A DNA stretch of 64,000 nucleotides from a phage. Where the stretch lies: sequence record PQ478073.1; one strand, given 5' to 3'. Within the stretch, counting starts at the first letter, position 1; each line of letters starts with the position of its first letter. The position numbers were made by a program, and so were the translations under genes. This document shows positions 10,309 through 55,751 of the stretch, one piece after another. The notes beneath the pieces were generated by a model. That model did not search any database. It was not told the DNA's origin and worked only from the letters and a program-made list of their open reading frames with translations.

Positions 10309-10500
10309 ATGTTGATTTATCAAAGTGATAATATTCGTGTTATGCAGCATCCCTACTTACAAATCTTTGATGTGCAGCAGTATATGGAAGGTGATGACCC
10401 AAGAACCTATGGTCGTAAGTATGATTACTTCACTGTAAAGCAGTGTAAAAATATTAACGAAGTACGACAATTAGTTCAAGAACTTCAAAACAAAGGTTGA
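10309..10500 (+). CDS. hypothetical protein (63 aa)
   Basis: ATG 10309 just after upstream stop; stop lies in terminator stem. Confidence 0.45.
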   Translation: MLIYQSDNIRVMQHPYLQIFDVQQYMEGDDPRTYGRKYDYFTVKQCKNINEVRQLVQELQNKG

Positions 10501-10526
10501 CTTCGGTCAGCCTTTTTTGTTATAAT
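10493..10526 (+). terminator. terminator hairpin GGTTGACTTCGGTCAGCC + T-run with embedded -35 and downstream TATAAT
   Basis: UUCG tetraloop stem plus T6; TTGACT 10497-10502, TATAAT 10521-10526. Confidence 0.7.
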
Positions 10527-10554
10527 TCTCTTAATAAATTAGAGGATTTTAATT

Positions 10555-10995
10555 ATGTATGTATATCGTTTTGAACTTAAATTTAGTTACATTGAACCTA
10601 ACTTAGATCCTGCACGAACTGTAGGTCCGTTTGCACGGTATTCAACTAGATACAGTACTAAAAATGGATTTGACCGTTTGCTTATGACTACACCTTCTCA
10701 ATTCCAACCTGAACCAACTGAGGATGGGATCTATTCAATCAAAAGTGGATGGGTATTTGGCTGTCAAAGTTTGAAAGATTTGTTCAGATTCTTCACTATG
10801 GACTTGGGTAAATTGCATCGTGCTGGGTTTGCTATATCTGTATATGAAGTTCCAGACCACCATGTAGACATTGGTCGTAATCAGGTTCAGTACTATTGCG
10901 GTAGTGCTAAATTAGTTCGTATCATGTCAGTTAAGGAAGCAAAGGATGAGTTCCGACAAAGTAAAAGAGAAACACATGAGGTAATATATGGATAA
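10555..10995 (+). CDS. hypothetical protein (146 aa)
   Basis: ORF track; GAGGA RBS. Confidence 0.55.
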   Translation: MYVYRFELKFSYIEPNLDPARTVGPFARYSTRYSTKNGFDRLLMTTPSQFQPEPTEDGIYSIKSGWVFGCQSLKDLFRFFTMDLGKLHRAGFAISVYEVPDHHVDIGRNQVQYYCGSAKLVRIMSVKEAKDEFRQSKRETHEVIYG

Positions 10996-11332
10996 AACTC
11001 AAATAGAATTAAAGAAATTTGTTTCATTCTATTTTCCTGATGACCCACGTAATTCACAAAAAGATATTGAATATTATAATATCCTATCTAAACAGTTAAT
11101 GAGAAAGTTTCAACAGTGTTTAACTATATTCAATACAGATGGAAGACGTAGATACCGAATCGTTTCAATGAATGATGAAAACGCAAATTTCTTTGATTAC
11201 GATGTAGTTTTTAGAGCATATAATGATGATCGTATAAAATTAAATTATGATCAAATTATACTTGACCTGAATGTTATATGTGTTATAATCACTCACGTAG
11301 CCGAACTTAATGGTTTTAAAGAATGGTATTGA
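10988..11332 (+). CDS. hypothetical protein (114 aa)
   Basis: ORF track. Confidence 0.5.
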   Translation: MDKTQIELKKFVSFYFPDDPRNSQKDIEYYNILSKQLMRKFQQCLTIFNTDGRRRYRIVSMNDENANFFDYDVVFRAYNDDRIKLNYDQIILDLNVICVIITHVAELNGFKEWY

Positions 11333-11346
11333 ATAGAGGATAACAT

Positions 11347-11613
11347 ATGAAGCTTAAATTACAATATAATGGATTTACTTTACGTAATGATACTGAATTT
11401 ATTAATCGTTCTCCTGGTGCTGAACTGTTTTTACGAGAGATGAACATTCCTTTCATCATTACTACAGTGGGCGACCGTGAAGTTCTACAATATGCAGAGC
11501 ATCCGATTATTGATGTTCCTTGGTACTCTGAGCATATGTACATGGATATGGCACGTCGCTACAACTGTAAGTTCGTAGTTGAAGGTGATAAAATTACAGT
11601 CGAATTTAAATAA
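11347..11613 (+). CDS. hypothetical protein (88 aa)
   Basis: ORF track; GAGGA RBS. Confidence 0.5.
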   Translation: MKLKLQYNGFTLRNDTEFINRSPGAELFLREMNIPFIITTVGDREVLQYAEHPIIDVPWYSEHMYMDMARRYNCKFVVEGDKITVEFK

Positions 11614-11625
11614 GGTAAATTAAAA

Positions 11626-11919
11626 ATGATCAGTACTTCAGTTAATGAAAGCATCGTCGCTGACGTAGAAATGGTTAAAGAATGTGCAGATGAAACTCTT
11701 CGTGATATGTACATTAATGATTTAATTACTGAATACGGTAGTCGTGGTGTACACGAATTTATTCGTTTAAGTGGAGAGTTGATGAAAAATCGAATTCGTA
11801 TGAAGCTTAACGTACATCCAAAAGCATGGGCATTTACATTAAAATACGCAGAAGATATTGTGAATTTGCGTCGAACTGAAGTATATGAACGTTTGCACAA
11901 TGGTATGTTAGATAAATGA
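11626..11919 (+). CDS. hypothetical protein (97 aa)
   Basis: ORF track. Confidence 0.5.
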   Translation: MISTSVNESIVADVEMVKECADETLRDMYINDLITEYGSRGVHEFIRLSGELMKNRIRMKLNVHPKAWAFTLKYAEDIVNLRRTEVYERLHNGMLDK

Positions 11920-11925
11920 TTGTAA

Positions 11926-11957
11926 AAAAGGAATTCTTAAATGAATTCCTTTTTGTT
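11926..11957. terminator. bidirectional terminator hairpin
   Basis: AAAAGGAATTC-ttaaat-GAATTCCTTTT, A-run and T-run flanks. Confidence 0.6.
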
Positions 11958-11971
11958 TATAAGGTATAGTA

Positions 11972-12193
11972 ATGAAATATATAGTACTTGTACTGATATT
12001 ATTCAGTACTGTTGTAAGTGCTAAACAAAAAGAATATGTTAAATGTATAAATTATGAAGAGAAATATGTTGAAACATATAAAAAAAGTATAATTAAAAAC
12101 GTTTCGATTACTAACAGAGCAACAATCATTGTACTTAAAAATGGGTTAATTATGCTATATAAACCACACGTTAAATGTGAAATTATTAATTGA
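11972..12193 (+). CDS. secreted protein (73 aa)
   Basis: Signal peptide MKYIVLVLILFSTVVSA. Confidence 0.5.
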   Translation: MKYIVLVLILFSTVVSAKQKEYVKCINYEEKYVETYKKSIIKNVSITNRATIIVLKNGLIMLYKPHVKCEIIN

Positions 12194-12200
12194 GGAAATT

Positions 12201-12773
12201 ATGAATCGTAAAGGTCGTTTTAAAGTATCAAAAAAGAACAAAAGTTCTAGGTTTAAACCTATTGTTTTAACAGTTAAATCTAACAAAGAATTAACTGCAC
12301 TTAGTAAAAAGATAATTTCATCTAAGATTGAAGTATCATACGTAAATTCATTAAAATATATGAATGTCAAACCACTGGACCAACTCATTTCACTTATATT
12401 TGAACGTAATGATTTTGAGATATCAGTAGATGATTATAGAGCCTATAATGCTGGTTTCATTAATGTTACTTGTAATAAAAAACTAACTGAGTTGGAAAAT
12501 TTGTCATGTATAATAAATCTAGATAAAGGTGTTGTGAAGTACCATTTTGTACATTTCACTAATATCAATAATGGAATGGGTGTACAATCCAGACCTATAG
12601 TGCCTACGTGTGATGTTACTAAATTAGCAAAGCTCAATGATGAAGAATATTTTCAAGAAAGCATTGTAACTGAGCATTTAGATGATATAATAGCTACTTA
12701 CAAAGAATGCATATGGGTGTTGAATGCTATAAAACCTAAATTGTGTTTAATGAATATTGTTCGTGATTTATGA
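12201..12773 (+). CDS. hypothetical protein (190 aa)
   Basis: ATG 12201 with GAGGA RBS. Confidence 0.55.
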   Translation: MNRKGRFKVSKKNKSSRFKPIVLTVKSNKELTALSKKIISSKIEVSYVNSLKYMNVKPLDQLISLIFERNDFEISVDDYRAYNAGFINVTCNKKLTELENLSCIINLDKGVVKYHFVHFTNINNGMGVQSRPIVPTCDVTKLAKLNDEEYFQESIVTEHLDDIIATYKECIWVLNAIKPKLCLMNIVRDL

Positions 12774-12786
12774 ATGGGGAATCGTA

Positions 12787-13230
12787 ATGAGTTGGGTAAA
12801 TGTTAATAGTATTGAACTTAACGAACAAGATATTTTTGCATTTGTAAATTTAACTAATAACACAGTACTAAAAGGGCGTTTGTTCAGTGCTAGTGATGGG
12901 TACAAATGGATCTCTTTGATGGATGATAGTGGTGTGATTTATAATGTAATGCAATTACCCCAATGGGTATATAGTAACACTGCTGACGATGTTCTTACCG
13001 CAGTTATGCGTGAGTTTGAAAAACTCCCAGGTGGTGATATCAAAAACAAAGTTTTTAATGCAGAACGTAAAAATTATACAGCACAGCAGTTGGAATCCCT
13101 TGCCATTGCTGCTTATCAAGCTGCTATTAAGAAGCCAGAGTGCGTTATTCTTAAGTATGTACCAGACTTAAAACTTACGTTGGAAGACATGGATGCATTC
13201 ATTTTTACATCTGAACTTGATCAGTACTAA
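12787..13230 (+). CDS. hypothetical protein (147 aa)
   Basis: Internal ATG of track ORF 12757..13230. Confidence 0.5.
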   Translation: MSWVNVNSIELNEQDIFAFVNLTNNTVLKGRLFSASDGYKWISLMDDSGVIYNVMQLPQWVYSNTADDVLTAVMREFEKLPGGDIKNKVFNAERKNYTAQQLESLAIAAYQAAIKKPECVILKYVPDLKLTLEDMDAFIFTSELDQY

Positions 13231-13345
13231 TTTAACTTTGGGACAACCATTCTTATTATGATATAATGTTTTATGTCATTCGATATAAATGACAACGGAA
13301 CTATAAATATTATAGTAAAATTTATCTCTTATAGGAGTTATAAAA

Positions 13346-13729
13346 ATGGTTGATAAATGGAATAAGAAAGATCCATCACATGATGTTGATATTTCTGGTC
13401 TAGACAATGCACATAAGCACAAGTATCTAGATTCACTAGGTCTTCTAAAACCAGACCAAAGTCTTGCACATGATCGTCCATCCCGTGAAAAAGCATTTAG
13501 CCTAGAATCACTAGGTCATGAGCTTAATCGTGTGTTTGAGGATCACCCAATCTATGTACGTGATATTATCGAGAAACTTAAAGTAACTCCTAAAGAGCAC
13601 TTTAAAGCAACTGTACACTCTGCATTCCGTGCATTACATGAATCTCTAAAGAAAACTCACAATCTTCGTAAAATTCATGATGAAATCGTGAATGCAATCG
13701 AAAGTGAAAAACATAAGTTCAAGAAGTAA
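13346..13729 (+). CDS. hypothetical protein (127 aa), N-terminal motif shared with 13976..15529
   Basis: AGGAG RBS; YLDSLGLLKPDQ resembles YVNSLGLLNATQ. Confidence 0.55.
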   Translation: MVDKWNKKDPSHDVDISGLDNAHKHKYLDSLGLLKPDQSLAHDRPSREKAFSLESLGHELNRVFEDHPIYVRDIIEKLKVTPKEHFKATVHSAFRALHESLKKTHNLRKIHDEIVNAIESEKHKFKK

Positions 13730-13735
13730 TAAAAA

Positions 13736-13763
13736 GGGGTTGACTAAGGTCAGCCCTTTGTTG
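13736..13763 (+). terminator. terminator (GGGTTGAC-TAAG-GTCAGCCC variant)
   Basis: Stem-loop followed by TTTGTTG. Confidence 0.55.
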
Positions 13764-13798
13764 TATCATAACTTCTCAATATAACTGAGGTATCATAT

Positions 13799-13912
13799 AT
13801 GCAAGGTTTGAAATTTGTAGTTGCTGCACTCATCGCCGCAGTACTGGTTGGTGGTGTATTCTATGTAGTGGATCAAAAAGTAAATCCACCTGCACAAGAA
13901 CAATCTAAGTAA
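13799..13912 (+). CDS. small membrane protein (37 aa)
   Basis: GAGG RBS; single TM; bracketed by two terminators; not in ORF track. Confidence 0.4.
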   Translation: MQGLKFVVAALIAAVLVGGVFYVVDQKVNPPAQEQSK

Positions 13913-13920
13913 CAAAATAA

Positions 13921-13946
13921 GGTTGACTTCGGTCAGCCTTTTCTTT
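13921..13946 (+). terminator. terminator GGTTGACTTCGGTCAGCC + T-run
   Basis: Hairpin family copy. Confidence 0.7.
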
Positions 13947-13975
13947 ATACTATAAATATAGTCATAGAGAAAAAA

Positions 13976-15529
13976 ATGAAATCTATGGAGAGAAATCAAA
14001 TGCCAAGTAATTTTACTGATAAAAATGGTGGTAACATGGCTGGTCACTCTGATAAATGGAGTGAACGCAACCGCCGTCCAAATAGTTATCAAGCAGGTCA
14101 AGGTTCACGTGGGTCACGTAATCAAGGAACTGGTCTAGCTGGTAAAGCAAACGCAGAAGCAGGTGAAGTTAAGAGTACTGAGAACATGACTGAGCTAGAA
14201 AAGCTACGTTATGTTAATTCATTGGGACTTCTTAATGCTACACAAAAACAACGTCTAGCTGATATGGAACGTGAAGAAAAAGAAAAGTCTGCTCCTGCGA
14301 AAGAAGAACCAAAACAAGAAGCACCAAAGGCGGTTAACCCTGTCAAAGAACTGTCTGATAAGTTAGGTAAGATTTTTGCTAATAAACCACAACTTATCCA
14401 AGGTATTGTGAAAGAATTGCAATCTGTACCTAAAGAAGAATTAAAAGTCAAAGCACAAGCTGTACTTGATGCAATGAGTGGAAATACCAGTACTGAACCA
14501 ACTGAAGTATTCAGTACTATAATGCGTGCACTTGAAGGTACGCAACAAGGTGATGTGCCTGCACAAGAGGAAGTAAGTCTTGAAAGCGTACTTAAAACAT
14601 TTGATAGTATTGGTAAAGAAGACCGTGCTAATGCTCAACAAGTTAAGAATGTACTAGCTAAGTTAGAAAACCGTCTGGAAGGCAAAGACGATAAGATTAA
14701 ATTAGTATCTGATGCAGTTAACGATGCACTTAAATCTTATGTACAAGGTGAAAAGAGTCGTTTTGTAACTGCAATGGATGCTGCATTCAATACTATGAAA
14801 AAGTATGAAGCTGATCATGGTGAGAAGGTTACACGAGATGGTTATCTGATGCGTGATGATGAAGAAGGTGCAGTTGACCAGAAAGATGCTGAAACATCTC
14901 ATGATGATTTACCTGATACTGTTGATATGGATGGTTACATTCATCGTCCAGAAATGGGAGAGTTTGGTTCTGACAAAGAAGGATTTGAACATGCAATGGC
15001 AGTGTACAAAGCTCTCGTGGACAATCCAGATTATGCCAACCGATTTGTAGATGAGTTTGATAGTGCATGGAACAACTACAAAGACAAAGGTTATGACTTC
15101 CCTGCTGAGGCAGCATTCTTTGAACTTGGTAAACTATTAGCTAAACATGGAATTGATGTAGGTTCTAAAGATGGTACTGATACTGATGGCATGGAAGCAG
15201 AATTGGCTAAAGATCGTGAAATGAACGACAACTCCATTCATGAACTCCAAAAGCTAATGATGTGGATATCCGATATTGGTAAAAAAGCTGGTGCTGATAA
15301 TAAGAGTATCAACAAAAACATTAGTTGGATTAAAAGTAATGTTGGTAAAAATGCTCGTAAACTACAAAAAGCATGGACTGATTTAGTAAATGGTGCTGAT
15401 GATGTTGACATTGAATCACCTGAAGCATACGAATATGCATTAACTACTCTTGATAATTCCTTTAAAGATTACGATAACGGTAACGTAACTCCTTGGGAAA
15501 AGGACATCATGAGCAAATACGGTAAATGA
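13976..15529 (+). CDS. large acidic/lysine-rich protein (517 aa), unknown function
   Basis: Longest ORF in the block; low-complexity charged composition. Confidence 0.65.
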   Translation: MKSMERNQMPSNFTDKNGGNMAGHSDKWSERNRRPNSYQAGQGSRGSRNQGTGLAGKANAEAGEVKSTENMTELEKLRYVNSLGLLNATQKQRLADMEREEKEKSAPAKEEPKQEAPKAVNPVKELSDKLGKIFANKPQLIQGIVKELQSVPKEELKVKAQAVLDAMSGNTSTEPTEVFSTIMRALEGTQQGDVPAQEEVSLESVLKTFDSIGKEDRANAQQVKNVLAKLENRLEGKDDKIKLVSDAVNDALKSYVQGEKSRFVTAMDAAFNTMKKYEADHGEKVTRDGYLMRDDEEGAVDQKDAETSHDDLPDTVDMDGYIHRPEMGEFGSDKEGFEHAMAVYKALVDNPDYANRFVDEFDSAWNNYKDKGYDFPAEAAFFELGKLLAKHGIDVGSKDGTDTDGMEAELAKDREMNDNSIHELQKLMMWISDIGKKAGADNKSINKNISWIKSNVGKNARKLQKAWTDLVNGADDVDIESPEAYEYALTTLDNSFKDYDNGNVTPWEKDIMSKYGK

Positions 15530-15539
15530 TAAAACAAAA

Positions 15540-15564
15540 GGTTGACTTCGGTCAGCCTTTTTTT
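15540..15564 (+). terminator. terminator GGTTGACTTCGGTCAGCC + T7
   Basis: Hairpin family copy. Confidence 0.7.
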
Positions 15565-15600
15565 GTAAATACAAAAGAGGAATTAAGAAGAGGGATTACA

Positions 15601-15852
15601 ATGAAAAAATATATTATATTTGGAATTGTATTATTTTCCAGTACTGCTTATGGTGCAGATTATCATTGCTCCGTAGCAAGGCAGGATTTCAGAAATGGGG
15701 AGTTCTATACTACCTCATACACAAAAGGAATAATACACGACACCGACAGAACTATTGGATTTAATGCGTTTGACAACAAAGATTCATATACTTCAGGTAT
15801 ACTATCTGAGCGTAAGACTGATGTAATGGGAATAGAAAAAGAGTTCCGGTGA
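15601..15852 (+). CDS. secreted protein (83 aa)
   Basis: ATG 15601 with GAGG RBS; signal peptide ...SSTAYGADY. Confidence 0.5.
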   Translation: MKKYIIFGIVLFSSTAYGADYHCSVARQDFRNGEFYTTSYTKGIIHDTDRTIGFNAFDNKDSYTSGILSERKTDVMGIEKEFR

Positions 15853-15862
15853 TTCAGTAGCA

Positions 15863-16186
15863 ATGTGCAATGACATTGAAAGTACCAAAACAATTTATTA
15901 TAATAATGAACGTAACTATCGTTTTCATAATTTAACCACAAATAAAAGTTTACTATTTTACAATTGTAAAGAAGTAATACTCCCATCAGACAATAGCTGT
16001 ACTCCAACTAATCAACCCTCAGCACAATGTAATACTCCCTCTGAACCTGATAAAAATAAAAAAGACAAAGATAAAGATAAAAAAGAAGACAAAAAACCTT
16101 TAAAAGATAAAAAGAAAGATAAAAAACCTAATCCGTTTAAAAATAATAAACCAGCACAACCCGATATGACGTGTAAAATAAAATAA
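15863..16186 (+). CDS. protein with lysine/aspartate-rich repetitive C-terminus
   Basis: ORF track; KKDKDKDKKEDKKPLKDKKKDKK tract; no clear RBS. Confidence 0.35.
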   Translation: MCNDIESTKTIYYNNERNYRFHNLTTNKSLLFYNCKEVILPSDNSCTPTNQPSAQCNTPSEPDKNKKDKDKDKKEDKKPLKDKKKDKKPNPFKNNKPAQPDMTCKIK

Positions 16187-16195
16187 GGATATATA

Positions 16196-16321
16196 ATGAA
16201 AAAGATTTTTTAAGTATTATTTTAGTACTTTTTAGTTTTAATGTATATGCAACAGATGCTAAACAGGTTGCAAATACAGTAAAAGATGTTATAGTAGATA
16301 ATGCTCCTACATTAGAGGAAT
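16196..16321 (+). pseudogene. small secreted protein interrupted at a T6 homopolymer
   Basis: ATG 16196 with RBS reads MKKIF then stop; one extra T restores a 41-aa signal-peptide ORF. Confidence 0.3.
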
Positions 16322-16376
16322 TGGGGTAAAAACTTGTGATATAGTAATATATAATTTAGTTAATGATGAACGAGTT

Positions 16377-16613
16377 ATGTTGAATACGTATGAACAAGTA
16401 GTCCCATTGGTTGAATCTGGTGATGCTTTTAGCTTTACATATAAAGTTAAATTAACAGGAGGGGTTGAAGTTAATCTTGACATTGATACCGCTTCAGTAC
16501 TAAAAGATAAACTAGGATATGTGTTCAATCGTATTCGTGAAGAAGGTCATCTTAAGTATGTTTATGAAAGTAAAATACTAAAATGTGCAATAGTTATAGA
16601 AAACTGTAAATGA
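16377..16613 (+). CDS. hypothetical protein (78 aa)
   Basis: ORF track. Confidence 0.45.
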   Translation: MLNTYEQVVPLVESGDAFSFTYKVKLTGGVEVNLDIDTASVLKDKLGYVFNRIREEGHLKYVYESKILKCAIVIENCK

Positions 16614-16621
16614 TAATAAAA

Positions 16622-16646
16622 GGGTTGACTTCGGTCAGCCTTTTTT
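16622..16646 (+). terminator. terminator GGGTTGACTTCGGTCAGCC + T6
   Basis: Hairpin family copy. Confidence 0.7.
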
Positions 16647-16682
16647 GTTATGATGTTGATATTAACTACAGAGGATAAAGTA

Positions 16683-17324
16683 ATGACTAAGCAAGAAATA
16701 TTCAAAACTTTAATTGACATTTTGCGTCCATCAAAAACTCGTTGTGCGATGGAGTTTGATATTCCTTATGCTGAACGCGTAATCTTTCCACAAGTTAAAG
16801 CTGCTGGACTTACTTTGCTTGGAATGGGGATGTACTCTGTAGTAGTTGAACATAAAAACTATCCTGGGCGTGCATTTAAAGTAACCACTTCACGCTGGGA
16901 TGGTTTTCGTGCTTATGCAAAGTACTGCATTGAAAACGCAGGAACCAAGTTTCTTCCAGTGATCTACAGTGCCAACGAACAAGGAAACTTTGGATGGTAT
17001 GAGATGGACAAGTACTATCCTATAATTAAACAAAAAAATAATTATGATGACTTTGTTAGTACTAAAATTGGAGATTTGTATTCGTATGCACATGCTGGTC
17101 AGTACGCAACTTCAGTGAATGATATGCGTGGAAATTCTGAAGAGATTGCTATTGCAACGGTCGCTGCTAACATCATGAAAGAGTTTCACGGGCGTTTTGT
17201 ACCAGACATTCATTCAAGTAATGTGATGATGGATAAAGATGGGAATGTATTCATTACTGATCCTCTTTCGTGTGATGTGCGTAGAGAAATACCAATTACT
17301 GAAGAAGATCCAGTTTTTTATTGA
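16683..17324 (+). CDS. protein-kinase-like protein (213 aa)
   Basis: GAGGA RBS; catalytic-loop-like DIHSSNVMMDKDGNVFITD. Confidence 0.45.
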   Translation: MTKQEIFKTLIDILRPSKTRCAMEFDIPYAERVIFPQVKAAGLTLLGMGMYSVVVEHKNYPGRAFKVTTSRWDGFRAYAKYCIENAGTKFLPVIYSANEQGNFGWYEMDKYYPIIKQKNNYDDFVSTKIGDLYSYAHAGQYATSVNDMRGNSEEIAIATVAANIMKEFHGRFVPDIHSSNVMMDKDGNVFITDPLSCDVRREIPITEEDPVFY

Positions 17325-17385
17325 CAGAACTGATGTTCTGATGTATTCTTAATAAACCATAAAAATTGCGGTAAAGGATAAAATC

Positions 17386-17667
17386 ATGCGTTCATTTGAA
17401 AACTTAATAGGTAAGCATCTTTTATCTGAAATTGATGCAGACGTTAAAGAATTATCCAAATCAAAAAGTTACATTCATTTGGATGAACTGTTTATTAAGT
17501 ACGGTGAGATTGGTTTTAAGTCATTATTTGTTTTTACTATGAAAGTACATAGTTTAAAGTACTTCGATTTGAGTGCTAAAGATGGTGAACCGAATCTATA
17601 TTACATGTATTACCTTAAGAACAAAGATGAAGCTAATACATTACTCTCTGAATATATATTGGGGTAA
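17386..17667 (+). CDS. hypothetical protein (93 aa)
   Basis: AAAGGA RBS. Confidence 0.5.
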   Translation: MRSFENLIGKHLLSEIDADVKELSKSKSYIHLDELFIKYGEIGFKSLFVFTMKVHSLKYFDLSAKDGEPNLYYMYYLKNKDEANTLLSEYILG

Positions 17668-17669
17668 AA

Positions 17670-18008
17670 ATGGAACAATATTTTGAATTAATAAACAAAG
17701 TATCATTTTATGTAGTATCTTTGGTTTGGGTGTATTATATGTTTTGCTACATTATTGCATTCTTCCGATACACTACTTTATATGAACGTATCTACTATGA
17801 TGCCCCAATTTCATTCTTGATGTTTTGTGCATGTACGTGGGGAATATTAGAAGTACTGATATGTGGGTATAGTACTGATGAATTAAATCTGGTATCGGTC
17901 TTGACTGGGTTTTCATTTGTTGTTATGATAGCTGCCGTTCCAGTATGGTTGTTCTTTGGACTAGTTCATCGCATTGATATATGGCGTTCTAATATCCCTG
18001 AAAAGTAA
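17670..18008 (+). CDS. small multi-TM membrane protein, family M (112 aa)
   Basis: Hydrophobic; C-terminus RSNIPEK matches family tail. Confidence 0.55.
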   Translation: MEQYFELINKVSFYVVSLVWVYYMFCYIIAFFRYTTLYERIYYDAPISFLMFCACTWGILEVLICGYSTDELNLVSVLTGFSFVVMIAAVPVWLFFGLVHRIDIWRSNIPEK

Positions 18009-18017
18009 GGATTGGTA

Positions 18018-18359
18018 ATGATTTATTACACTAACATGTTTGCCTATGCTGTTGCTTGCATTTACATTGTTTACTTCTTATTCGGTGGAGTACTGTGCTT
18101 CTTTAAGTACAAAACGTTGTTCAACCGAATGTACCCAAATCATCCAATTGTAGTTGTACTTTTGATTCTTTCAGTTTCTCAAATAATCGTTGAAACTACA
18201 ATGGGTATCAGTAGTGTACATTATAGTTTTGGCACTATAGTAATTATTACTATGCTTATTGCATACATTTTAGTACTTGGATATGGTATCTTTGGTAATA
18301 TTGGTATGAAAATGTATCATCGAATTAAAACATTACGTGATAATCTACCGGAGCGTTGA
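18018..18359 (+). CDS. small multi-TM membrane protein, family M
   Basis: AAGGA RBS; C-terminus RDNLPER. Confidence 0.55.
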   Translation: MIYYTNMFAYAVACIYIVYFLFGGVLCFFKYKTLFNRMYPNHPIVVVLLILSVSQIIVETTMGISSVHYSFGTIVIITMLIAYILVLGYGIFGNIGMKMYHRIKTLRDNLPER

Positions 18360-18360
18360 T

Positions 18361-18705
18361 ATGTATAATTTGAACCTAATCTCATATATTATAACAACAC
18401 TGTTTACATTCTATGCCTTTGTTGGTATAATCCTACTGTACTTTAAATTTTATAAAGTGTTTAACCGTTTCTATCCTTCAATGGAGAATGAGTTTTTCTT
18501 TGTGTTGTACGTAGGTTACACATTAATGGCTACATGTTTCACTGTAGCCGATGGCGTCATCGGCATTAAAACTGATTCCCCAAATGGTAGTACGCTGGTT
18601 GCATTTATTCTTACTGGATTCCTTGCAACTTATATTGCCTTCATTACAACATGGTCAGTGGTTGAATTTCTCTTGCGACTACGAAAGAATATGCCGAATC
18701 GATAG
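18361..18705 (+). CDS. small multi-TM membrane protein, family M
   Basis: ATG 1 nt after upstream stop; C-terminus RKNMPNR. Confidence 0.55.
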   Translation: MYNLNLISYIITTLFTFYAFVGIILLYFKFYKVFNRFYPSMENEFFFVLYVGYTLMATCFTVADGVIGIKTDSPNGSTLVAFILTGFLATYIAFITTWSVVEFLLRLRKNMPNR

Positions 18706-18714
18706 GAGACATAT

Positions 18715-18969
18715 ATGTTTGCGTTGCGTAATAAAAACACTAAAGAATTATTATGTATTGATACCGTATGGGATTGTGCGGGATCAACTACAGTTCTTGA
18801 AGAAGGAACTGGATATTGCGTGTTTGTTGTTCATGATAGGAATGAACTCGAATTATTACTTGCTGAGTTCAATGCTGGTGGTAATCCTAACAGTACTGAA
18901 TACCCTGAGATTATCAATCCAGCACCACCAGGCTCTTATGAAATTCTACAACTGTGGGAGTTGAAGTAA
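18715..18969 (+). CDS. hypothetical protein (84 aa)
   Basis: AGGAG RBS. Confidence 0.5.
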   Translation: MFALRNKNTKELLCIDTVWDCAGSTTVLEEGTGYCVFVVHDRNELELLLAEFNAGGNPNSTEYPEIINPAPPGSYEILQLWELK

Positions 18970-19349
18970 TGCGTCAAATGCACAAAGTAACCGAGCTAAA
19001 CAAGCGTCTGGTTAAACAATCAATGTTCGAGGATAAAGAGTCTTATTATAACTTTAAACGTGCAGTAGAGGCTGCTATCCACATTCAGAAGCTTAAAGAA
19101 CGTGGTTGTATTATTCTGGAAAATGGTTCGGAAGTTGTAACGGATGACTTTAGTGTAGCGTTTGATGTTTCACCTGACGGGACGCTATCAATGCCCCGCT
19201 TAGGAACTGGAAACATGACTGTTTGGGTTGGCTTCACTATGGGGAATGTACCTGGTACTGTGTACGTAGATGATGCGGAATTGAAAGACAGTTTCAAAAA
19301 CTTATCTTATCTTGAACCACAATACGCACATGAAATGAATTTATTTTGA
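18969..19349 (+). CDS. hypothetical protein (126 aa)
   Basis: ATG 18969 with GGAG RBS. Confidence 0.5.
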   Translation: MRQMHKVTELNKRLVKQSMFEDKESYYNFKRAVEAAIHIQKLKERGCIILENGSEVVTDDFSVAFDVSPDGTLSMPRLGTGNMTVWVGFTMGNVPGTVYVDDAELKDSFKNLSYLEPQYAHEMNLF

Positions 19350-19351
19350 GT

Positions 19352-19379
19352 TGACAAACACATTCAGTACTGTATAATG
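19352..19379 (+). promoter_or_regulatory. promoter TTGACA-N16-TATAAT (AGTACTG-TATAAT type)
   Basis: TTGACA 19352-19357, TATAAT 19374-19379. Confidence 0.6.
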
Positions 19380-19425
19380 CTTATCAAGGGGATGAACTTC
19401 TCATCCCTACAATCGAGGAACTACC

Positions 19426-19980
19426 ATGATTACTTTTAAGAAAACTGCTAACCACATCCATGAAATCTACATTAACGGTCACAAAGCTGGCCTTCTTCGT
19501 TTACTCGCCCATCATCCTGATGTTACCGTATCTGATAATGAACCTAAAGATTGGCGTGTATTTTTCTTTGGAAAGTACAGTGATTTTCAAGTATCAAACC
19601 TGAAGAACATTCGTTCAGTATGCACGTTAACTGAAATTAAAGAAAAGTTAGAAAAAGCATTGAAAACTAATCCAGATGGTGTTCTTCCACCTGATAACTT
19701 TGTAGAGAAAGGTTATGCATTAGCTCATTTCAAAGATGGTACTATTCAATCTATCAGTACTGAATATGAATATCAATGGACTGAGTACTTCACTTATGGA
19801 TCGCGTAATACATTGATGGCTTCACGTAGTAAATTGGAAGAAGTACTGACTCGTATGAATGAACGCGAACGTCAATTTTATGACAAACCAGAAATGTGGA
19901 GTTCAACTTACATTGACCGTATTGACTATGTTATTATGACTCCAATCTTTGACACTGCTTACTATGATTCTTTGAAATAA
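19426..19980 (+). CDS. hypothetical protein (184 aa)
   Basis: GAGGA RBS. Confidence 0.6.
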   Translation: MITFKKTANHIHEIYINGHKAGLLRLLAHHPDVTVSDNEPKDWRVFFFGKYSDFQVSNLKNIRSVCTLTEIKEKLEKALKTNPDGVLPPDNFVEKGYALAHFKDGTIQSISTEYEYQWTEYFTYGSRNTLMASRSKLEEVLTRMNERERQFYDKPEMWSSTYIDRIDYVIMTPIFDTAYYDSLK

Positions 19981-19991
19981 GGATAACTTAT

Positions 19992-20168
19992 ATGAAACTA
20001 CGTACTCGTAATAGACTGATGGATGCACTGTACCATGAACAGCTTTCACTGAATGAAGTGAAGCGTCAGTTAATGTACACATATCTGTTACCCGCTCGCA
20101 TTGCAAAACAACGTGCTAAAGAATTGCTGAAAGAAGCAATCGAGTACTGGGAATCTGATTCGTACTAA
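19992..20168 (+). CDS. hypothetical protein (58 aa)
   Basis: AAGGA RBS; below track cutoff; fills intergenic gap. Confidence 0.4.
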   Translation: MKLRTRNRLMDALYHEQLSLNEVKRQLMYTYLLPARIAKQRAKELLKEAIEYWESDSY

Positions 20169-20207
20169 TATTACGTGATATGTCACGTTAATTAAGTGAG
20201 GCGATAA

Positions 20208-20459
20208 ATGAAAATATTATTAGTTCTAATACTACTAATAGTTTTACCATTTACTTTAGTATCCCCTGGACTTGCATGGAATGTATTTGTGTACTTAGTA
20301 TGTACTATTGTAGTAAATGGTATCTTGTTCTTAGTTCTATTCATAAATGGAATAGGACACGGTGGAGGATGGACCAGTACTGCTGATATCGTACATAAAA
20401 CCACTATGTCTTTATTTGTAATGTGGAATTTGTTCTGGACTTGGTTTGTGTTCTTCTAA
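20208..20459 (+). CDS. small membrane protein (83 aa)
   Basis: GAGG RBS; hydrophobic. Confidence 0.5.
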   Translation: MKILLVLILLIVLPFTLVSPGLAWNVFVYLVCTIVVNGILFLVLFINGIGHGGGWTSTADIVHKTTMSLFVMWNLFWTWFVFF

Positions 20460-20467
20460 TTAAAAAT

Positions 20468-20839
20468 ATGAATATAGATTTGAAAGGTGCAACCCGAACT
20501 GTTATCCTCATTGGGGAATACGCTATCAAGATTCCAACCTTCAAAAGCTGGAAGTTATTCCTAACTGGAATGATAGCTAACCTCAATGAACGTTCATGGA
20601 TGCAGTACTCCAATCGTAGTGATAGTGGTATCTGCCCTACTTTGTGGTCATCATGTACAGGACTAGTAACTGTACAGAAACGTTGTAAGCCAGTTCAACA
20701 TAGGGGTTTATTTTGGGTGGAGTTGTGTGCTTTAGCATTGAATTCAGAGTTAAGTACTGACTTCTTTTATTCAGATGCGAAGCCAGAAAACTTTGGTTAT
20801 CTGAATGGTAAGTTAGTTAAACTTGATTATGGAGATTAA
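20468..20839 (+). CDS. mini protein-kinase-like protein (123 aa)
   Basis: AIK lysine motif, DAKPEN catalytic loop, DYG (DFG-like). Confidence 0.5.
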   Translation: MNIDLKGATRTVILIGEYAIKIPTFKSWKLFLTGMIANLNERSWMQYSNRSDSGICPTLWSSCTGLVTVQKRCKPVQHRGLFWVELCALALNSELSTDFFYSDAKPENFGYLNGKLVKLDYGD

Positions 20840-20840
20840 G

Positions 20841-21110
20841 ATGTACGCACTGTATAATAAAGAAAAGAAACGATTTGCTAAGGTTGAAATTTCGATTGAT
20901 ACCTTTGATATGTTGGAGTACTGTATTGTGACGGACCTATATGCTAACTTGTATTACGTTCTTGATGACGTATCAGTACTGCAACGATTGCTTGAGAATT
21001 CCAAAAGTCAATGCCAGGGCATCCATGATGGTTCATCTTATGAAACACCTGAGTGTTCCTACGGCTATCTGGACGGGTATGAGATTGTGAAGTTGGGGAT
21101 TGTTGAATAA
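20841..21110 (+). CDS. hypothetical protein (89 aa)
   Basis: ATG 20841 with GGAG RBS. Confidence 0.5.
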   Translation: MYALYNKEKKRFAKVEISIDTFDMLEYCIVTDLYANLYYVLDDVSVLQRLLENSKSQCQGIHDGSSYETPECSYGYLDGYEIVKLGIVE

Positions 21111-21116
21111 AGAAAA

Positions 21117-21149
21117 GGGTTGACTACGGTCAGCCCTTTTTGCTATAAT
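21117..21149 (+). terminator. terminator GGGTTGACTACGGTCAGCCC + T-run fused to promoter
   Basis: TTGACT 21120-21125 in stem; TATAAT 21144-21149; 18-nt spacer. Confidence 0.7.
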
Positions 21150-21177
21150 CATTTCATCGAAACGAGAGGATGAATAC

Positions 21178-21693
21178 ATGACACGCATTAACTTAGTACA
21201 CGTTAAAGAACTTGCTGACCAACATCTGATGGCTGAATATCGTGAACTCCCACGTGTATTTGGTTCTGTACAAAAACACGTTCAAGCACGTAAGCGTGTA
21301 CGTGATTTCAAAATTAACAGTACTTACCTGTTGGGTTCAGGTCATGTAACATTCTTCTACAACAAGTTATTGTACTTACAGAAGCGTCATATTGATATTG
21401 TTAACGAATGTTTGCGTCGTGGTATGAAGATTCAAAACACTGAAGTAAACGACATTAGCGGATTCCCTGCTGAGTTTTGTAATGACTACGTACCATCGGA
21501 GTCAGAGATTAAAATGTCTCGTGATCGTTTGATTGAGAAGCTCCAGATGAAGCCTACGTGGTATAAGTTTACTGATGTTGAATGTCCACAGTACGTTAAA
21601 GATATGCAGAACGTAAGTAGTAAGAACGAATCTAGTACTGATATGTTCGACGAAATTGAAGAACAAATCAAAGATGAAATGAATAATTATTAA
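21178..21693 (+). CDS. denV: endonuclease V, pyrimidine-dimer DNA glycosylase (T4 DenV homologue)
   Basis: [29 protein letters not shown]...RVRDFKI...[10 protein letters not shown] matches T4 DenV from memory; GAGGA RBS. Confidence 0.85.
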
Positions 21694-21699
21694 AGGAAA

Positions 21700-21716
21700 G
21701 GATTGACTTCGGTCAC
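21700..21716 (+). other. degenerate copy of the TTGACT hairpin element (no T-run)
   Basis: GGATTGACTTCGGTCAC. Confidence 0.3.
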
Positions 21717-21731
21717 ACAAAGGAACATAAC

Positions 21732-21926
21732 ATGTTATTAGTATATTCAAAGCGTTTCTGGATTTCTTTCATTGTACTTTCGCTAATCGGCTTCGGTGTG
21801 AGTATAATCTTTTCGTGGGATGAATTGGGTACATGGTATTATGAAGTTCCGTGGTACATGAAGATAGCTCCTTGTTATGCGGCATTGTTCGTGTCATTCC
21901 TTATTGTTGTCTTCAGCGAGGATTAG
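21732..21926 (+). CDS. small membrane protein (64 aa)
   Basis: AAAGGAA RBS; two hydrophobic segments. Confidence 0.5.
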   Translation: MLLVYSKRFWISFIVLSLIGFGVSIIFSWDELGTWYYEVPWYMKIAPCYAALFVSFLIVVFSED

Positions 21927-22032
21927 TTGATGTAGTATGTGCTACACCAAAGTATTTGGATATTTTAGATATAAACATTGACACCTGTTCTATCTTTCTG
22001 TATTATGTACATCACCAAATGAGGAATACAAC

Positions 22033-22392
22033 ATGGCATCTTTAAGTGAAATCGCAGAATACAACCCACTAACAATCTCAACAATTCAACGTACAAAAAC
22101 TTTTTATTTCCGTCCTGCTGATGGATGGAAACGTGGAATGAATGGTGACTATCGAGTACTGGAAGATTCACTAATCGAGCGTATCAACTCTGAACTACAG
22201 AAGTATGAAGGTGTTAAAGTTGTGCGTTCAACTTCTCGTTATTTTGAGTACTACATTGAGTCTTCAACTGTAAATGAAAACTCATCATTATCGGTGGACA
22301 ACACTGATATTCTTCGTAATGCAGTTGGTATGTTATGCAACATTGCAGAAGAAATGGGATTAACTATTAGTACTATGAGTGAGTTAGAATAA
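22033..22392 (+). CDS. hypothetical protein (119 aa)
   Basis: GAGGAA RBS. Confidence 0.55.
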   Translation: MASLSEIAEYNPLTISTIQRTKTFYFRPADGWKRGMNGDYRVLEDSLIERINSELQKYEGVKVVRSTSRYFEYYIESSTVNENSSLSVDNTDILRNAVGMLCNIAEEMGLTISTMSELE

Positions 22393-22398
22393 CATAAA

Positions 22399-22431
22399 GG
22401 GTTGACTTCGGTCAGCCCTTTTTGCTATAAT
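22399..22431 (+). terminator. terminator fused to promoter
   Basis: TTGACT 22402-22407; TATAAT 22426-22431. Confidence 0.7.
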
Positions 22432-22457
22432 CATTTCATCAACTCAAGAGGCAACAC

Positions 22458-22691
22458 ATGAAACTATCTTTTATACGATTGGCTGAATTCTTTGGTACTG
22501 ATGTAATTACTCTACAACAAATCGCAGATAATACATCATTAACTACACAAGAAGTACTTGACTTAGATGTAATTCAGTGCGATAATACTTCCATCGATTA
22601 CAAAGAAGGTCTTGTCGAAAAAGATAAGATTCAAGCTAAAATTAATGGTGCTGGACGGGTTCAGTACTGGAAAGGAGTTTTAAGTAAATGA
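22458..22691 (+). CDS. hypothetical protein (77 aa)
   Basis: AGAGG RBS. Confidence 0.5.
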   Translation: MKLSFIRLAEFFGTDVITLQQIADNTSLTTQEVLDLDVIQCDNTSIDYKEGLVEKDKIQAKINGAGRVQYWKGVLSK

Positions 22692-24112
22692 AAATTTATA
22701 TTGATAAATTTGGAACGACTTATGAATATTATGATTATACACATTATAATTCATATATACAAAAAAATCATAACCAAATGTCACCTTATTTGCATTATGA
22801 AGATTTAATGGAACTATTCTCTAAAAATGTAAATTCTATTAAATTTATTGGTTTTAAAGATCCAACATGGAAAAGTTCACATACGCATGTGTATTTTGAA
22901 TATGATAATATGGTATATGAACATTCAATATCAAATATCAAAACAAAATTCGCTGATCATAGATATAAACCAGGTAGACTATGTAGAACCTTGGAACAAA
23001 TTATAAATGAGTCCATTTATATATTTAAAAAATATGATAAATTTAATTTTCATAGCATTGCATCATTTAATGGAGCACGAACTATAATCAATTATACAAT
23101 TGAAGGACGTGAAAGAATATTTTCTATATCATTCAATTCATTAATAAAAGATTTTAAAGGGGGAAGCCCATGTTATTCATATGAAGAAGTAGAAAATATA
23201 TCTATAAAAAAATTAAATGAACATAATTTGAGATTTATCTCAATTAGTAAATTTAATGGTGTGTTTAGTTGTATTGAATATGAACAACCAACTCAGAAAG
23301 GAAAAAAATATGTTGATTTTAATATATTAATCTATAATGAATGGAAAGGTAATCTACCGAATATAACTAATGAAGAGGTGAATAATCGAATTTCAGAAAA
23401 AATGAAAAAACTAAATATCAATGAATATGAAATTGTAGAATATAACAGTACTAGGAGCATGGTTGAATATACAGTTGATGATATTTCATATACAACTAGT
23501 TACGATAAGATTATGCATCCAACTTGGAAAGGTAATCCAAGATATACAAAAGAAAGAATAATAAAATTGTCGAAAAAATATTGCAAGGGTAAAAAATTTC
23601 AATTTAATAAAATAATTGGTAATGTTAAAGGAATTAATACTATCATTGAATTAGAACTTGAAAATGGTATGTTTATATATCCAAAATTTATACAATTAAA
23701 AGGAGGTTCTGACTTTAATACATCCACTGATGGTAAGATTTTAACAGAAATAATTTATCCTTTGTTCGACAATTATATCACACAAAAACGTTTTGAAAAT
23801 TGTAGAAATCCTGAAACTGGATACTTGTTGCCATATGATTTGTATGTTCCAGAATTTAATTTATTATTAGAAAAAGATGGAGTGCAACATTACAATCCAA
23901 CAGCATATTTTAATAAAACATATGAATCATATTTGAAATTGAGAGAGAGAGATGAATTTAAAAACAAATATGCCATATCAAATGGTTATAATTTCATGCG
24001 AATAGCAGATTATGAAGATCATGAAAAAATATTGAAATCTTTCCTTAAACTCATTGAAGAGAATCCAGGAAAGCAAATTGTGCAGATCTATGGTGAAGTA
24101 CAAATTATCTAA
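22688..24112 (+). CDS. AT-rich repeat-containing protein (474 aa); candidate nuclease or homing-type gene
   Basis: Very low GC versus neighbours; internal PTWK(G/S) repeats; C-terminal D...EKDG motif. Confidence 0.5.
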   Translation: MKIYIDKFGTTYEYYDYTHYNSYIQKNHNQMSPYLHYEDLMELFSKNVNSIKFIGFKDPTWKSSHTHVYFEYDNMVYEHSISNIKTKFADHRYKPGRLCRTLEQIINESIYIFKKYDKFNFHSIASFNGARTIINYTIEGRERIFSISFNSLIKDFKGGSPCYSYEEVENISIKKLNEHNLRFISISKFNGVFSCIEYEQPTQKGKKYVDFNILIYNEWKGNLPNITNEEVNNRISEKMKKLNINEYEIVEYNSTRSMVEYTVDDISYTTSYDKIMHPTWKGNPRYTKERIIKLSKKYCKGKKFQFNKIIGNVKGINTIIELELENGMFIYPKFIQLKGGSDFNTSTDGKILTEIIYPLFDNYITQKRFENCRNPETGYLLPYDLYVPEFNLLLEKDGVQHYNPTAYFNKTYESYLKLRERDEFKNKYAISNGYNFMRIADYEDHEKILKSFLKLIEENPGKQIVQIYGEVQII

Positions 24113-24119
24113 AACAAAA

Positions 24120-24152
24120 GGGTTGACTTCGGTCGGCCCTTTTTGCTATAAT
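24120..24152 (+). terminator. terminator fused to promoter
   Basis: GGGTTGACTTCGGTCGGCCC + T-run; TATAAT 24147-24152. Confidence 0.7.
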
Positions 24153-24180
24153 CATTTCATCAACTCAAGAGGATAAAGAC

Positions 24181-49835: not shown

Positions 49836-49843
49836 AAAAGTAC

Positions 49844-55582: not shown

Positions 55583-55720
55583 ATGAATCCAAATAATATT
55601 ATCTATCATAACGCTAAAACGAAAGCAGATAAGGTAAACGCAAAAAAAGCGAAAGTAAAGCAGTACATCAAGCAAGGCATGACACGCAAAGCGGCATTGC
55701 TTAAAGCTAAAAATAAATGA
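55583..55720 (+). CDS. small lysine-rich protein (45 aa)
   Basis: ATG right after upstream stop; ends at terminator. Confidence 0.35.
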   Translation: MNPNNIIYHNAKTKADKVNAKKAKVKQYIKQGMTRKAALLKAKNK

Positions 55721-55727
55721 AAAAAAG

Positions 55728-55751
55728 TGGTTGACTTCGGTCAGCCATTTT
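55728..55751 (+). terminator. terminator TGGTTGACTTCGGTCAGCCA + T-run
   Basis: Hairpin family copy. Confidence 0.65.

Follow-up and report, generated by a model that had tools for sequence, protein, structure and literature searches.

Promoter-early stem-loop (PeSL) elements of RB49 and phi1 are repeated intergenic sequences that combine an AT-rich tract, a near-consensus sigma70 promoter and a stem-loop, and they fall into five subclasses according to the position of the stem-loop, one of which overlaps the -35 hexamer (Arbiol et al., 2010; PMC2839356). In lacZ fusions, the RB49/phi1 stem-loops terminated transcription about as efficiently as rrnB T1 and the promoters were very strong, and mini-circles between PeSLs were demonstrated in RB49 (PMC2839356). 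PeSLs were subsequently extended to T4/PST and to nt-1/KVP40, with a stem-loop consensus in nt-1 of A3-4G3-loop-C3T3-4 (Comeau, Arbiol and Krisch, 2014; PMC4122927). Here, we analyzed a stretch of phage DNA of 64,000 nucleotides (PQ478073.1; hereafter, the window), in which a hairpin-forming sequence with an embedded TTGACT recurs downstream of genes. Its copies are probably PeSL-type composite cassettes of approximately 45 bp, in which a predicted intrinsic terminator or attenuator is combined with a predicted sigma70-type early promoter. The dual terminator-promoter idea is already known from T4-like phages; the cassettes described here would extend it to Rak2-like jumbo phages.

On sequence grounds, the window elements are classed as PeSLs of the nt-1 type. 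As in nt-1/KVP40, A3-4 G3 is followed by a stem-loop and C3 T3-4, the -35 lies inside the stem-loop, the -10 lies approximately 17 nt further on, and, in the 10-24 kb cluster of the window, a Shine-Dalgarno sequence and ATG follow; in both cases the elements are intergenic and occur in many copies among small ORFs. A covariance model of the whole module was built from 40 non-identical copies and comprised the A-tract, a 12-pair stem, the loop, the T-run and the -10. When it was applied to 40-60 kb of Vibrio phage nt-1, it hit AAAAAGGGTTGACAGATGTCAGCCCTTTTTTGTATCAT at 44632 (39.6 bits), between ORF109 and ORF110, a junction that is given as an example in Fig. 6B of the nt-1 study (PMC4122927). 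Two further hits (...GGGTTGCTTCGGCAGCCC... and ...GGGTTGCACTATGCAGCCC...) were obtained, and all three carry the GGGTTG/CAGCCC wobble. The inner stem and loop vary in nt-1 (TTGC-TTCG-GCAG, TTGCA-CTA-TGCAG), whereas they are almost uniformly TTGAC-UUCG-GUCAG here, and the published nt-1 -35 consensus is TTGYVH, whereas all copies here have TTGACT. Moreover, nt-1 phages belong to the Straboviridae while the cassettes described here reside in a Rak2-like jumbo phage (Asteriusvirus), and the link to insertions and deletions (indels) is weaker here than in nt-1-type PeSLs. With the PeSLs of RB49/phi1 the cassettes share, as predicted from their sequence, a strong sigma70-like promoter, AT-rich upstream sequence and a terminator stem-loop, and also a location in regions of small non-essential ORFs. 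The RB49/phi1 stems differ in being mostly G-run/C-run and in lying most often between -35 and -10 or over the -10, and the mini-circles and PeSL-to-PeSL deletions demonstrated there were not seen here.

The source phage is an Asteriusvirus (a 121Q/PBECO4-like jumbo coliphage; Rak2-like), as indicated by 97-99% identity (megablast) of 10-24.5 kb to the Asteriusvirus jumbo coliphages 121Q, PBECO4, G17, phAPEC6, slurp01, ELP-22 and others. Of the nine ARNold terminators that the GenBank record of G17 (MK327931) gives for the homologous counterpart of 10-24 kb, eight correspond to these hairpins, and Table S8 of the CBB paper lists the same hairpins as terminators, e.g., Torf515/518/520 with GGGTTGACTTCGGTCAGCCCTTT... 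(PMC5259590). These Rho-independent terminators are literally the same hairpins, annotated with a terminator function only, and among the promoter rows that a search of the CBB supplement returned these sites are absent. The papers on RaK2, Sharanji and fEgEco12 contain no text on promoters or terminators; among the genus papers searched, promoters are discussed in the CBB paper alone and a dual role or PeSLs in none. A literature search with the literal cassette sequence returned a single, unrelated paper.

The exact 18-mer GGTTGACTTCGGTCAGCC occurred six times in the window (10495, 13921, 15540, 16623, 22400, and 55729), where shuffled sequences lead to an expectation of zero, and allowing up to three mismatches gave 11 matches, all on the plus strand, vs. 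0.03 expected. With filters off, the covariance model returned 11 full-length hits with scores of 48-66 bits, beginning at 10483, 13726, 13909, 15528, 16611, 21106, 22388, 24109, 55717, 59410, and 62355 and referred to as modules 1 to 11 in this order; hits on the minus strand were only mirror images of plus-strand sites. The original prediction of at least 12 copies is thereby reached with 11 intact copies and one decayed copy, although the literal 18-mer itself is present in just six, and the positions proposed there agree with ours to within 2 nt. The copies do follow genes: the hairpin starts 6-14 nt past the upstream stop codon, except at 10495, where the stop codon is inside TTGAC. There, the TGA of the ORF ending at 10500 (10498-10500) is part of the -35 and the stem (GGT TGA CTT), and therefore coding sequence, terminator stem and promoter overlap. 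An A-rich tract of 4-8 nt precedes the -35, and the modules conform to the consensus aAAAAaGGG-TTGAC-TTCG-GTCAG-CCC-TTTTT-GC-TATaAT, with G2-3, C2-3 and T3-7 varying and usually with TGnTAtaAT at the 3' end.

Read as RNA, a module has the form A-tract/GGG-UUGAC-UUCG-GUCAG-CCC/U-run, that is, a hairpin of 7-13 bp followed by U3-7, which is the classical signal of an intrinsic terminator. Read as DNA, the 5' arm and the first loop base constitute the -35 hexamer TTGACT, so the claim that the stem contains this hexamer was correct; the remainder of the loop, the 3' arm, the T-run and TGn form a spacer of 17-18 nt, and TAtaAT is the -10. Within the spacer, the loop remainder contributes 3 nt, the 3' arm 7-8 nt and the T-run 3-6 nt, followed by TGn, and because these parts must total 17-18 nt, both the stem and the U-run are short. 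The A-tract is also used twice, by pairing with the U-run and as an AT-rich UP-like region.

Several lines of evidence support the hairpin. The sense-strand RNA of the 11 intact copies folded at -12.4 to -19.7 kcal/mol, with z-scores of -3.9 to -6.6. On the antisense strand, where the U.G wobble is replaced by a C.A mismatch and UUCG by CGAA, the folds of the three copies tested were accordingly weaker by 4.6-6.3 kcal/mol. The wobble had been noticed previously and involves the first T of TTGAC, which pairs with G. The wobble variant GTCAGCC was found in 39 stretches of viral sequence vs. 5 for Watson-Crick GTCAACC (~10:1), a preference that fits an RNA hairpin, which tolerates G.U, and that is not needed by a symmetric DNA site; the wobble makes the element directional and removes one TTGAC from the bottom strand. 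The loop and the T-run proved less uniform than originally described. UUCG holds for 7 of the 11 intact copies (as TTCG), the others having TAAG (13738), TACG (21118), TCCG (59422) and TCCA (62367), and six copies have 5-7 T, with merely 3-4 T in those at 13738, 13921, 55729, 59422, and 62367.

Compensatory changes were confirmed in the copies at 59422 and 62367, in which the second stem pair is A-U instead of G-C, and the three outer pairs covaried in a wider set of 113 distinct copies aligned from the window and other phages. In this alignment, the outer three pairs changed on both sides (A-U to G-C; G-C to A-U or U-A), giving 31 double-change cells in the outer stem vs. 7.2 +/- 2.2 in shuffles (0 of 500 shuffles reached 31). 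Paired cells amounted to 94.9%, vs. 28-60% after sliding the 3' partner by 1-3 columns. The inner five pairs (the TTGAC/GTCAG core) were nearly invariant. Covariation limited to the outer pairs, combined with a nearly invariant core, is the pattern expected if the 5' arm doubles as a -35. As predicted intrinsic terminators, the copies have a stem of at least 5 bp, a 4-nt loop, a U-run and a position past the stop codon on the coding strand; as predicted PeSL terminators or attenuators, they have a stable stem-loop that overlaps the -35 and is followed by a U-run.

The promoter half is regular at its upstream end, with TTGACT as -35 in 11 of 11 copies. The proposed TATAAT at 18-nt spacing was found in four copies (10497, 21120, 22402, and 24123); six others match it at 5/6 positions at 17-18 nt, and the copy at 15540 has none. 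An extended-10 TG is present in 8 of the 11 copies. The cassettes thus show the sigma70-like -35/-10 pair at a spacing of approximately 17 nt that characterizes PeSL promoters, with one copy lacking the -10. Extended -10 sigma70 promoters of E. coli and the early promoters of T4 are composed of TTGAC(T/A), a 17-18-nt spacer, TGnTATAAT and A-rich upstream sequence. The cassettes contain the same promoter elements, whereas such ordinary promoters do not have a -35 embedded in a terminator stem.

The same arrangement extends beyond the window. The 39 stretches carrying the 18-mer come from IMG/VR viral contigs, and nearly all of them continue with CCTTTTTGCTATAAT or a close variant. Approximately half of the matches listed in a 14-mer scan of viral contigs were chance hits in coding sequence, and matches were filtered by context before use. 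The sample of promoter contexts comprised 55 distinct contexts pooled from many phages, each with an extended stem and T-run. TAnnnT with a match of at least 4/6 lay 16-19 nt past the -35 in 50 of these 55 contexts vs. a background of 7.3% (binomial P ~5e-51), and a match of at least 5/6 was found in 42 of them vs. 1.5%. The -35/-10 spacing was 17 nt in 26 contexts and 18 nt in 27, and 43 had the extended-10 TG. Such enrichment of a -10 at fixed spacing is a constraint not expected of a pure terminator.

In the 10-24 kb cluster, a Shine-Dalgarno sequence and an ATG follow all eight copies, including module 4, which lacks a promoter. In the seven copies that have a -10, the ATG lies 25-30 nt past it, and therefore the leaders would be approximately 20 nt long and free of the hairpin. 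According to the proposed mechanism, host RNA polymerase with sigma70 would initiate approximately 7 nt past the -10, the resulting mRNA would carry a ~20-nt leader that excludes the hairpin, and each small early gene or gene pair would become an insulated transcription unit. The central claim of the original prediction, that one module can end one transcript and start the next, is supported in both halves by the sequence statistics, the comparative data and the experimental precedent in RB49/phi1.

A number of observations weigh against the composite cassette, or against its full equivalence to a PeSL. Module 4 lacks a -10, and the 18-nt spacer and the T at the sixth position of the -35 are slightly sub-optimal. 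The five copies with 3-4 U after the stem may terminate poorly and act in attenuation only. Directly downstream of modules 9-11 there is no gene but ~180 nt of non-coding sequence and a second promoter, so that the role of their own promoter is not simply to express the next gene. In relatives, the products of two genes located past modules are annotated as virion structural proteins, which fits an early role imperfectly, and a literature search found no mapped transcript 5'/3' ends or transcriptome for Asteriusvirus/Rak2-like phages. The remaining points concern gene gain and loss, for which 8-27 kb was compared with eight relatives and 53-64 kb with three. In neither comparison was an indel bounded by two copies, the signature of PeSL mini-circles. 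Insertions adjoin only the 5' edge of the cassette. Three of approximately seven whole-ORF indels in 8-27 kb touch a cassette, with ~20% of gene junctions carrying one, an association that is not significant (P ~0.15, an estimate), and the breakpoints in 53-64 kb fall at other promoters.

Three sites at 10-24 kb were involved in such events. At module 6, phage JP4 carries a 414-nt HNH gene exactly between the upstream stop codon and the hairpin (21111); an 87-bp HNH remnant is present in ELP-22, phAPEC6, and SHEFM2K, and none in the window, G17, or 121Q. At module 7, JP4 has a 612-nt ORF between the upstream stop codon and the hairpin. The slot at 22688-24112, whose right edge is the exact start of module 8, holds a homing endonuclease gene (474 aa) in the window, is empty in Salmonella phage SD-15_S21, and contains other genes in G17/JP4, 121Q, and CRJP21 (four occupants in all). 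The positions 21111 and 22688-24112 are insertion hot spots of homing endonucleases. Genes inserted past the stop codon but ahead of the cassette would share the transcript of the upstream gene and stay insulated from the downstream gene. The other whole-ORF indels, at 17363, 20172-20462, 21581-21973, and 24923-25355, are away from cassettes. That cassettes are joints of gene gain and loss among close relatives is partly shown, and a recombinational role is possible.

The positions of the cassettes themselves are stable. All eight intact copies at 10-24 kb were kept in position in 7/7 relatives whose fetched locus spans the cluster, as were the seven sites covered in phAPEC6, whose locus ends before the last one. 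The three copies at 55-62 kb were kept in 3/3 relatives compared there, and a fourth copy lies just past the right edge of the window. This positional conservation indicates that the elements are not hopping. In the 121Q genome (348.5 kb), a covariance search found 12 copies, all on the plus strand and all within 98.7-153.8 kb, and 11 of the 12 lie in the segment homologous to the window. They form one cluster of eight at 98.7-112.8 kb, which contains the kinase and endoV genes and lies a few kb downstream of the phage sigma-factor gene, and one of four at 144.9-153.8 kb, within the 21.5-kb direct terminal repeat. The same search found no copy in the other ~290 kb, where all structural and replication modules and two further long runs of small ORFs are located. 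The 121Q copies thus sit in a 55-kb stretch of small hypothetical ORFs around the genome terminus, the type of location in which PeSLs are found. The idea that every ORFan-rich region carries the element was rejected, since the 121Q census finds none in 45-90 kb and 154-200 kb.

Among the alternatives, the one that fares best holds that the main selected role of the cassettes is recombinational, as portable linkers in the sense of the "modular shuffling" attributed to PeSLs, with transcription control being secondary. It draws on the mini-circles formed between RB49 PeSLs (PMC2839356) and on the three of nine sites in 10-24 kb that have lineage-specific insertions at the 5' edge or bound a slot with five states. 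Modules 7 and 8 are near-identical from the A-tract to the Shine-Dalgarno sequence (~59/60 nt shared), and copy 7 of phAPEC6 and SHEFM2K has a copy-6-type leader ATCGAAACGAGAGG, hinting at exchange between copies. Concerted evolution between copies was nonetheless set aside as a candidate, the leader swap being a weak hint from too few sites. Against a primarily recombinational role stand the conserved positions of the cassettes, the lack of insertions flanked by two copies, the non-significant association with indels and the breakpoints at 53-64 kb, which avoid the elements. Furthermore, two of the three events abutting a cassette involve homing endonuclease genes, which are self-mobile and have their own mechanism of mobility. 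Overall, we regard this explanation as unlikely.

It is very improbable that the elements are plain intrinsic terminators in which TTGAC and the TATAAT-like run are incidental to AT-rich intergenic DNA. In favor of this view, no function beyond that of an ARNold terminator is assigned to the hairpins in the G17 record or the CBB paper, a -10 is missing from module 4, and a generic promoter scan of 8-27 kb yielded 92 sites vs. 94.8 in shuffled sequence. Yet the bases of a terminator stem are unconstrained, and here over 100 distinct copies have TTGAC without exception, with covariation at the outer pairs; the -10 also falls at 17 or 18 nt in 50/55 contexts, usually with the extended-10 TG, far above the background of 7%. 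The stems of other terminators in the window (e.g., 11920 and 2379) are unrelated, and a -10 of this kind is missing there.

The converse view, in which the elements are promoters only and the inverted repeat is an operator for a dimeric phage or host regulator or a stabilizer of RNA 3' ends, appears very improbable. TTGAC-N4-GTCAG, a near-perfect inverted repeat, is centered on the -35, where a repressor would be ideally placed, its two arms are almost invariant, and the U-runs are weak in five copies. However, given a fixed -35, base pairing is enough to account for the invariant 3' arm, the outer stem covaries, and the preference for the G.T wobble over a perfect DNA palindrome fits an RNA hairpin better. 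The element also occurs in unrelated Vibrio, Aeromonas, and Brochothrix phages, for which a single shared regulator is unlikely.

A last candidate, REP- or MITE-like small mobile elements spreading through intergenic DNA, would account for the many near-identical intergenic copies and for the same 18-mer in unrelated phage genomes, but it was rejected as extremely improbable because the copies are positionally fixed in all eight relatives, with no presence/absence of the element alone at the 10-24 kb sites, no target-site duplications or duplicated flanks were seen, and orientation is always that of the flanking genes, each part of the unit having an obvious transcriptional role.

The 18-mer is widespread among phages. 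It occurs with the same flanks in RaK2, GAP32, and Serratia BF (genome-length IMG/VR contigs), and K64-1 and Erwinia jumbo phages match a flanked 47-nt query at 97%. It was also found in contigs of KVP40 size, with KVP40-like Vibrio phages matching the 47-nt query at 80-89%, in ~230-kb Aeromonas phages (T4-likes) and in ~150-kb contigs, with rV5-like phages (CR9, PBES02, and CB7) matching the flanked query at 91-94%. Two exact copies are present in phage A9 of Brochothrix, a Gram-positive host. Many cassette copies in unrelated phages additionally share the initial transcribed sequence (A/T)CATCGAAAC, starting ~6 nt past the -10 (loci L003, L007, L015, L030, L041, and L161, the last from nt-1, and window positions 21155-21170), which extends to CATCGAAACGAGA in both nt-1 and the endoV leader of the window.

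Most of the sequence follows from the design: with TTGAC as -35 in the 5' arm and C(UUCG)G closing it, the 3' arm is determined, and convergence is therefore sufficient to explain the recurrence. Some shared details go beyond apparent functional need: the 18-mer, the U.G wobble at the same pair, the UUCG loop, "TGC" before the -10 and often CATCGAAAC. The shared wobble, "TGC" and frequent CATCGAAAC start leave horizontal spread open. That the cassette is a horizontally exchanged pan-phage regulatory module, beyond convergence, in which polymerase is perhaps handed over from termination to re-initiation because the release point of the terminator lies inside the next promoter, is nevertheless doubtful. 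If the copies were related by descent, the cassettes would be universal joints through which unrelated virulent phages swap ready-to-express genes.

All individual copies are on the plus strand. Module 1 (10483..10531) has its hairpin at 10495-10512, followed by T6 and TGTTATAAT, with the -10 at 10521-10526 after an 18-nt spacer and the next ATG at 10555 (57.7 bits; -14.1 kcal/mol). In module 2 (13726..13774), the hairpin is GGGGTTGACTAAGGTCAGCCCC with loop TAAG, and T3 and the -10 TATCAT at 18 nt follow ahead of a 37-aa ORF (ATG 13799; 48.4 bits; -17.0 kcal/mol). Module 3 (13909..13956) contains the exact 18-mer, T4 and the -10 TATACT at 17 nt (next ATG 13976; 53.5 bits; -12.4 kcal/mol). The exact 18-mer in module 4 (15528..15575) is followed by T7 and TGTAAATAC (next ATG 15601; 51.0 bits; -14.3 kcal/mol); since it has no credible -10, this copy (15540) is probably a terminator only. 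Module 5 (16611..16659), with the exact 18-mer, T6 and TGTTATGAT (-10 at 18 nt), precedes a gp0.7-like protein kinase gene (ATG 16683; 59.3 bits; -14.8 kcal/mol).

Module 6 (21106..21154) precedes the endonuclease V gene (ATG 21178) and has loop TACG, T5 and TGCTATAAT at 18 nt (63.7 bits; -19.7 kcal/mol). Past it lies the degenerate copy GATTGACTTCGGTCACAC (21701..21718), with a broken outer stem, no T-run and no -10, which gave a partial covariance hit at 21704 (13.8 bits) and no fold (-3.2 kcal/mol, z -0.5). In module 7 (22388..22436), the exact 18-mer is followed by T5 and TGCTATAAT at 18 nt (next ATG 22458; 64.5 bits; -18.3 kcal/mol). Module 8 (24109..24157) has the 3' arm GTCGGCC, giving a second U.G pair, and again T5 and TGCTATAAT at 18 nt (next ATG 24181; 58.6 bits; -16.8 kcal/mol). 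The last three modules have TGCTATTAT at 17 nt. Module 9 (55717..55764), in the terminal-repeat region, contains the exact 18-mer and T4 and is followed by a conserved non-coding leader and the second promoter (65.6 bits; -15.9 kcal/mol). Module 10 (59410..59457) carries the variant GGGATTGACTCCGGTCAGTCCC with the compensatory A-U pair, and module 11 (62355..62402) the variant GGGATTGACTCCAGTCAGTCCC; both have T3 and a non-coding leader downstream (63.0 bits and -19.5 kcal/mol; 58.0 bits and -17.6 kcal/mol, respectively).

A conserved 12-nt box, CCCAYMGGGTGC, lies ~25 nt downstream of the -10 at eight promoters, including modules 9-11 (50239, 55786, 57468, 59474, and 62424 on the plus strand; 51837, 50307, and 48105 on the minus strand). 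It is inside a conserved untranslated stretch of ~50 nt and also occurs in Rak2-like loci (L003, L019, and L026). When the box past modules 9-11 was folded with RNAalifold as a candidate small RNA, only a weak 7-pair stem without covariation was obtained; the box may be bound by a protein or mark the beginning of a small RNA.

Other regulatory sequences were observed in the window. A second promoter family, more numerous than the cassette with 19 copies at 48697-63741, has the form AAAAAGTACTTGCA-N17-(G)TATAATGTTTTACATC; downstream come a hairpin in the 5'-UTR (GGGGAGAATAGTTCTCCCC) and a Shine-Dalgarno sequence, and a terminator part is lacking. Nearly all small ORFs of the terminal-repeat region, which this family fills, are preceded by a copy (e.g., 49157-49227, 49834-49904, 55854-55924, 58407-58477, and 63671-63741). 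A third composite module lies between RCC1-like paralogues on the minus strand (29637-41800) and consists of a hairpin ATGCCAGTAC-nnn-GTACTGGCAT and a T-run, directly followed by ATTAAATATAGTATAATGAATAAAGGAGG (sites at 29637, 32032, 33246, 34349, 35762, 36972, 39362, and 40612). Its TAAATA resembles a T4 late promoter, and the module would be a terminator plus late-type promoter duplicated along with the RCC1-like genes. Further combinations resembling PeSL subclasses, with the stem-loop between -35 and -10 or spanning both (e.g., TTGACAGAACTGATGTTCTGATGTATTCT and CAGTACTATTGACATAGTTTGATAGTACTGGCATAAT), were seen at 17325-17385, 24961-24989, 50185-50225, 54095-54144, 56599-56648, and 60360-60400; SHEFM2K has a 414-bp ORF inserted at one such site, 17363. 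The 8-bp palindrome CAGTACTG has 57 sites in the window vs. 0.8 from shuffles, in coding and non-coding DNA (e.g., 4774, 19365, 46947-48649, and 62811), and is densest at 46.9-51.9 kb; many promoters draw their spacer and extended-10 TG from it (CAGTACTGTATAAT).

Regarding the setting, 1-28 kb carries small, mostly hypothetical ORFs on the plus strand, among them genes for a phage RpoD-like sigma factor at ~1.4-2.4 kb, the gp0.7-like protein kinase, endonuclease V and homing endonucleases, and 28.5-46 kb carries the RCC1-like paralogue array on the minus strand. The 47-64 kb part aligns to the start of the 21.5-kb direct terminal repeat (DTR) annotated in phage vB_Ec-M-J, and therefore the window probably straddles the physical genome end at ~47 kb; this placement comes from the alignment to vB_Ec-M-J, where the DTR is annotated at 1-21525. 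At ~46500-48790 there is a 2.3-kb non-coding stretch, the probable physical genome end and start of the direct terminal repeat, which contains repeats with a period of 8 nt (GGATGGCT/AGACGGCT at 47750-47909) and three 53-bp tandem repeats (48536-48694). Scans of the window with Rfam 15 and for tRNA/tmRNA gave no Rfam match at gathering score and no tRNAs.

The result overturns nothing and opens no long-standing question. In practice, the cassette would offer synthetic biology a 45-bp insulator-plus-promoter part, and a landmark for gene-cassette boundaries in engineering these phages. For Rak2-like phages, it suggests that the hairpins should be recorded in annotation as early promoters as well as terminators, and that around a dozen short insulated early units would surround the genome terminus, including those of the host-takeover kinase and endonuclease V genes. 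The PeSL design would thereby extend beyond T4-like phages, with one compact solution, a -35 in the 5' arm, a UUCG loop, and a 3' arm and U-run that serve as spacer, recurring across widely differing phages.

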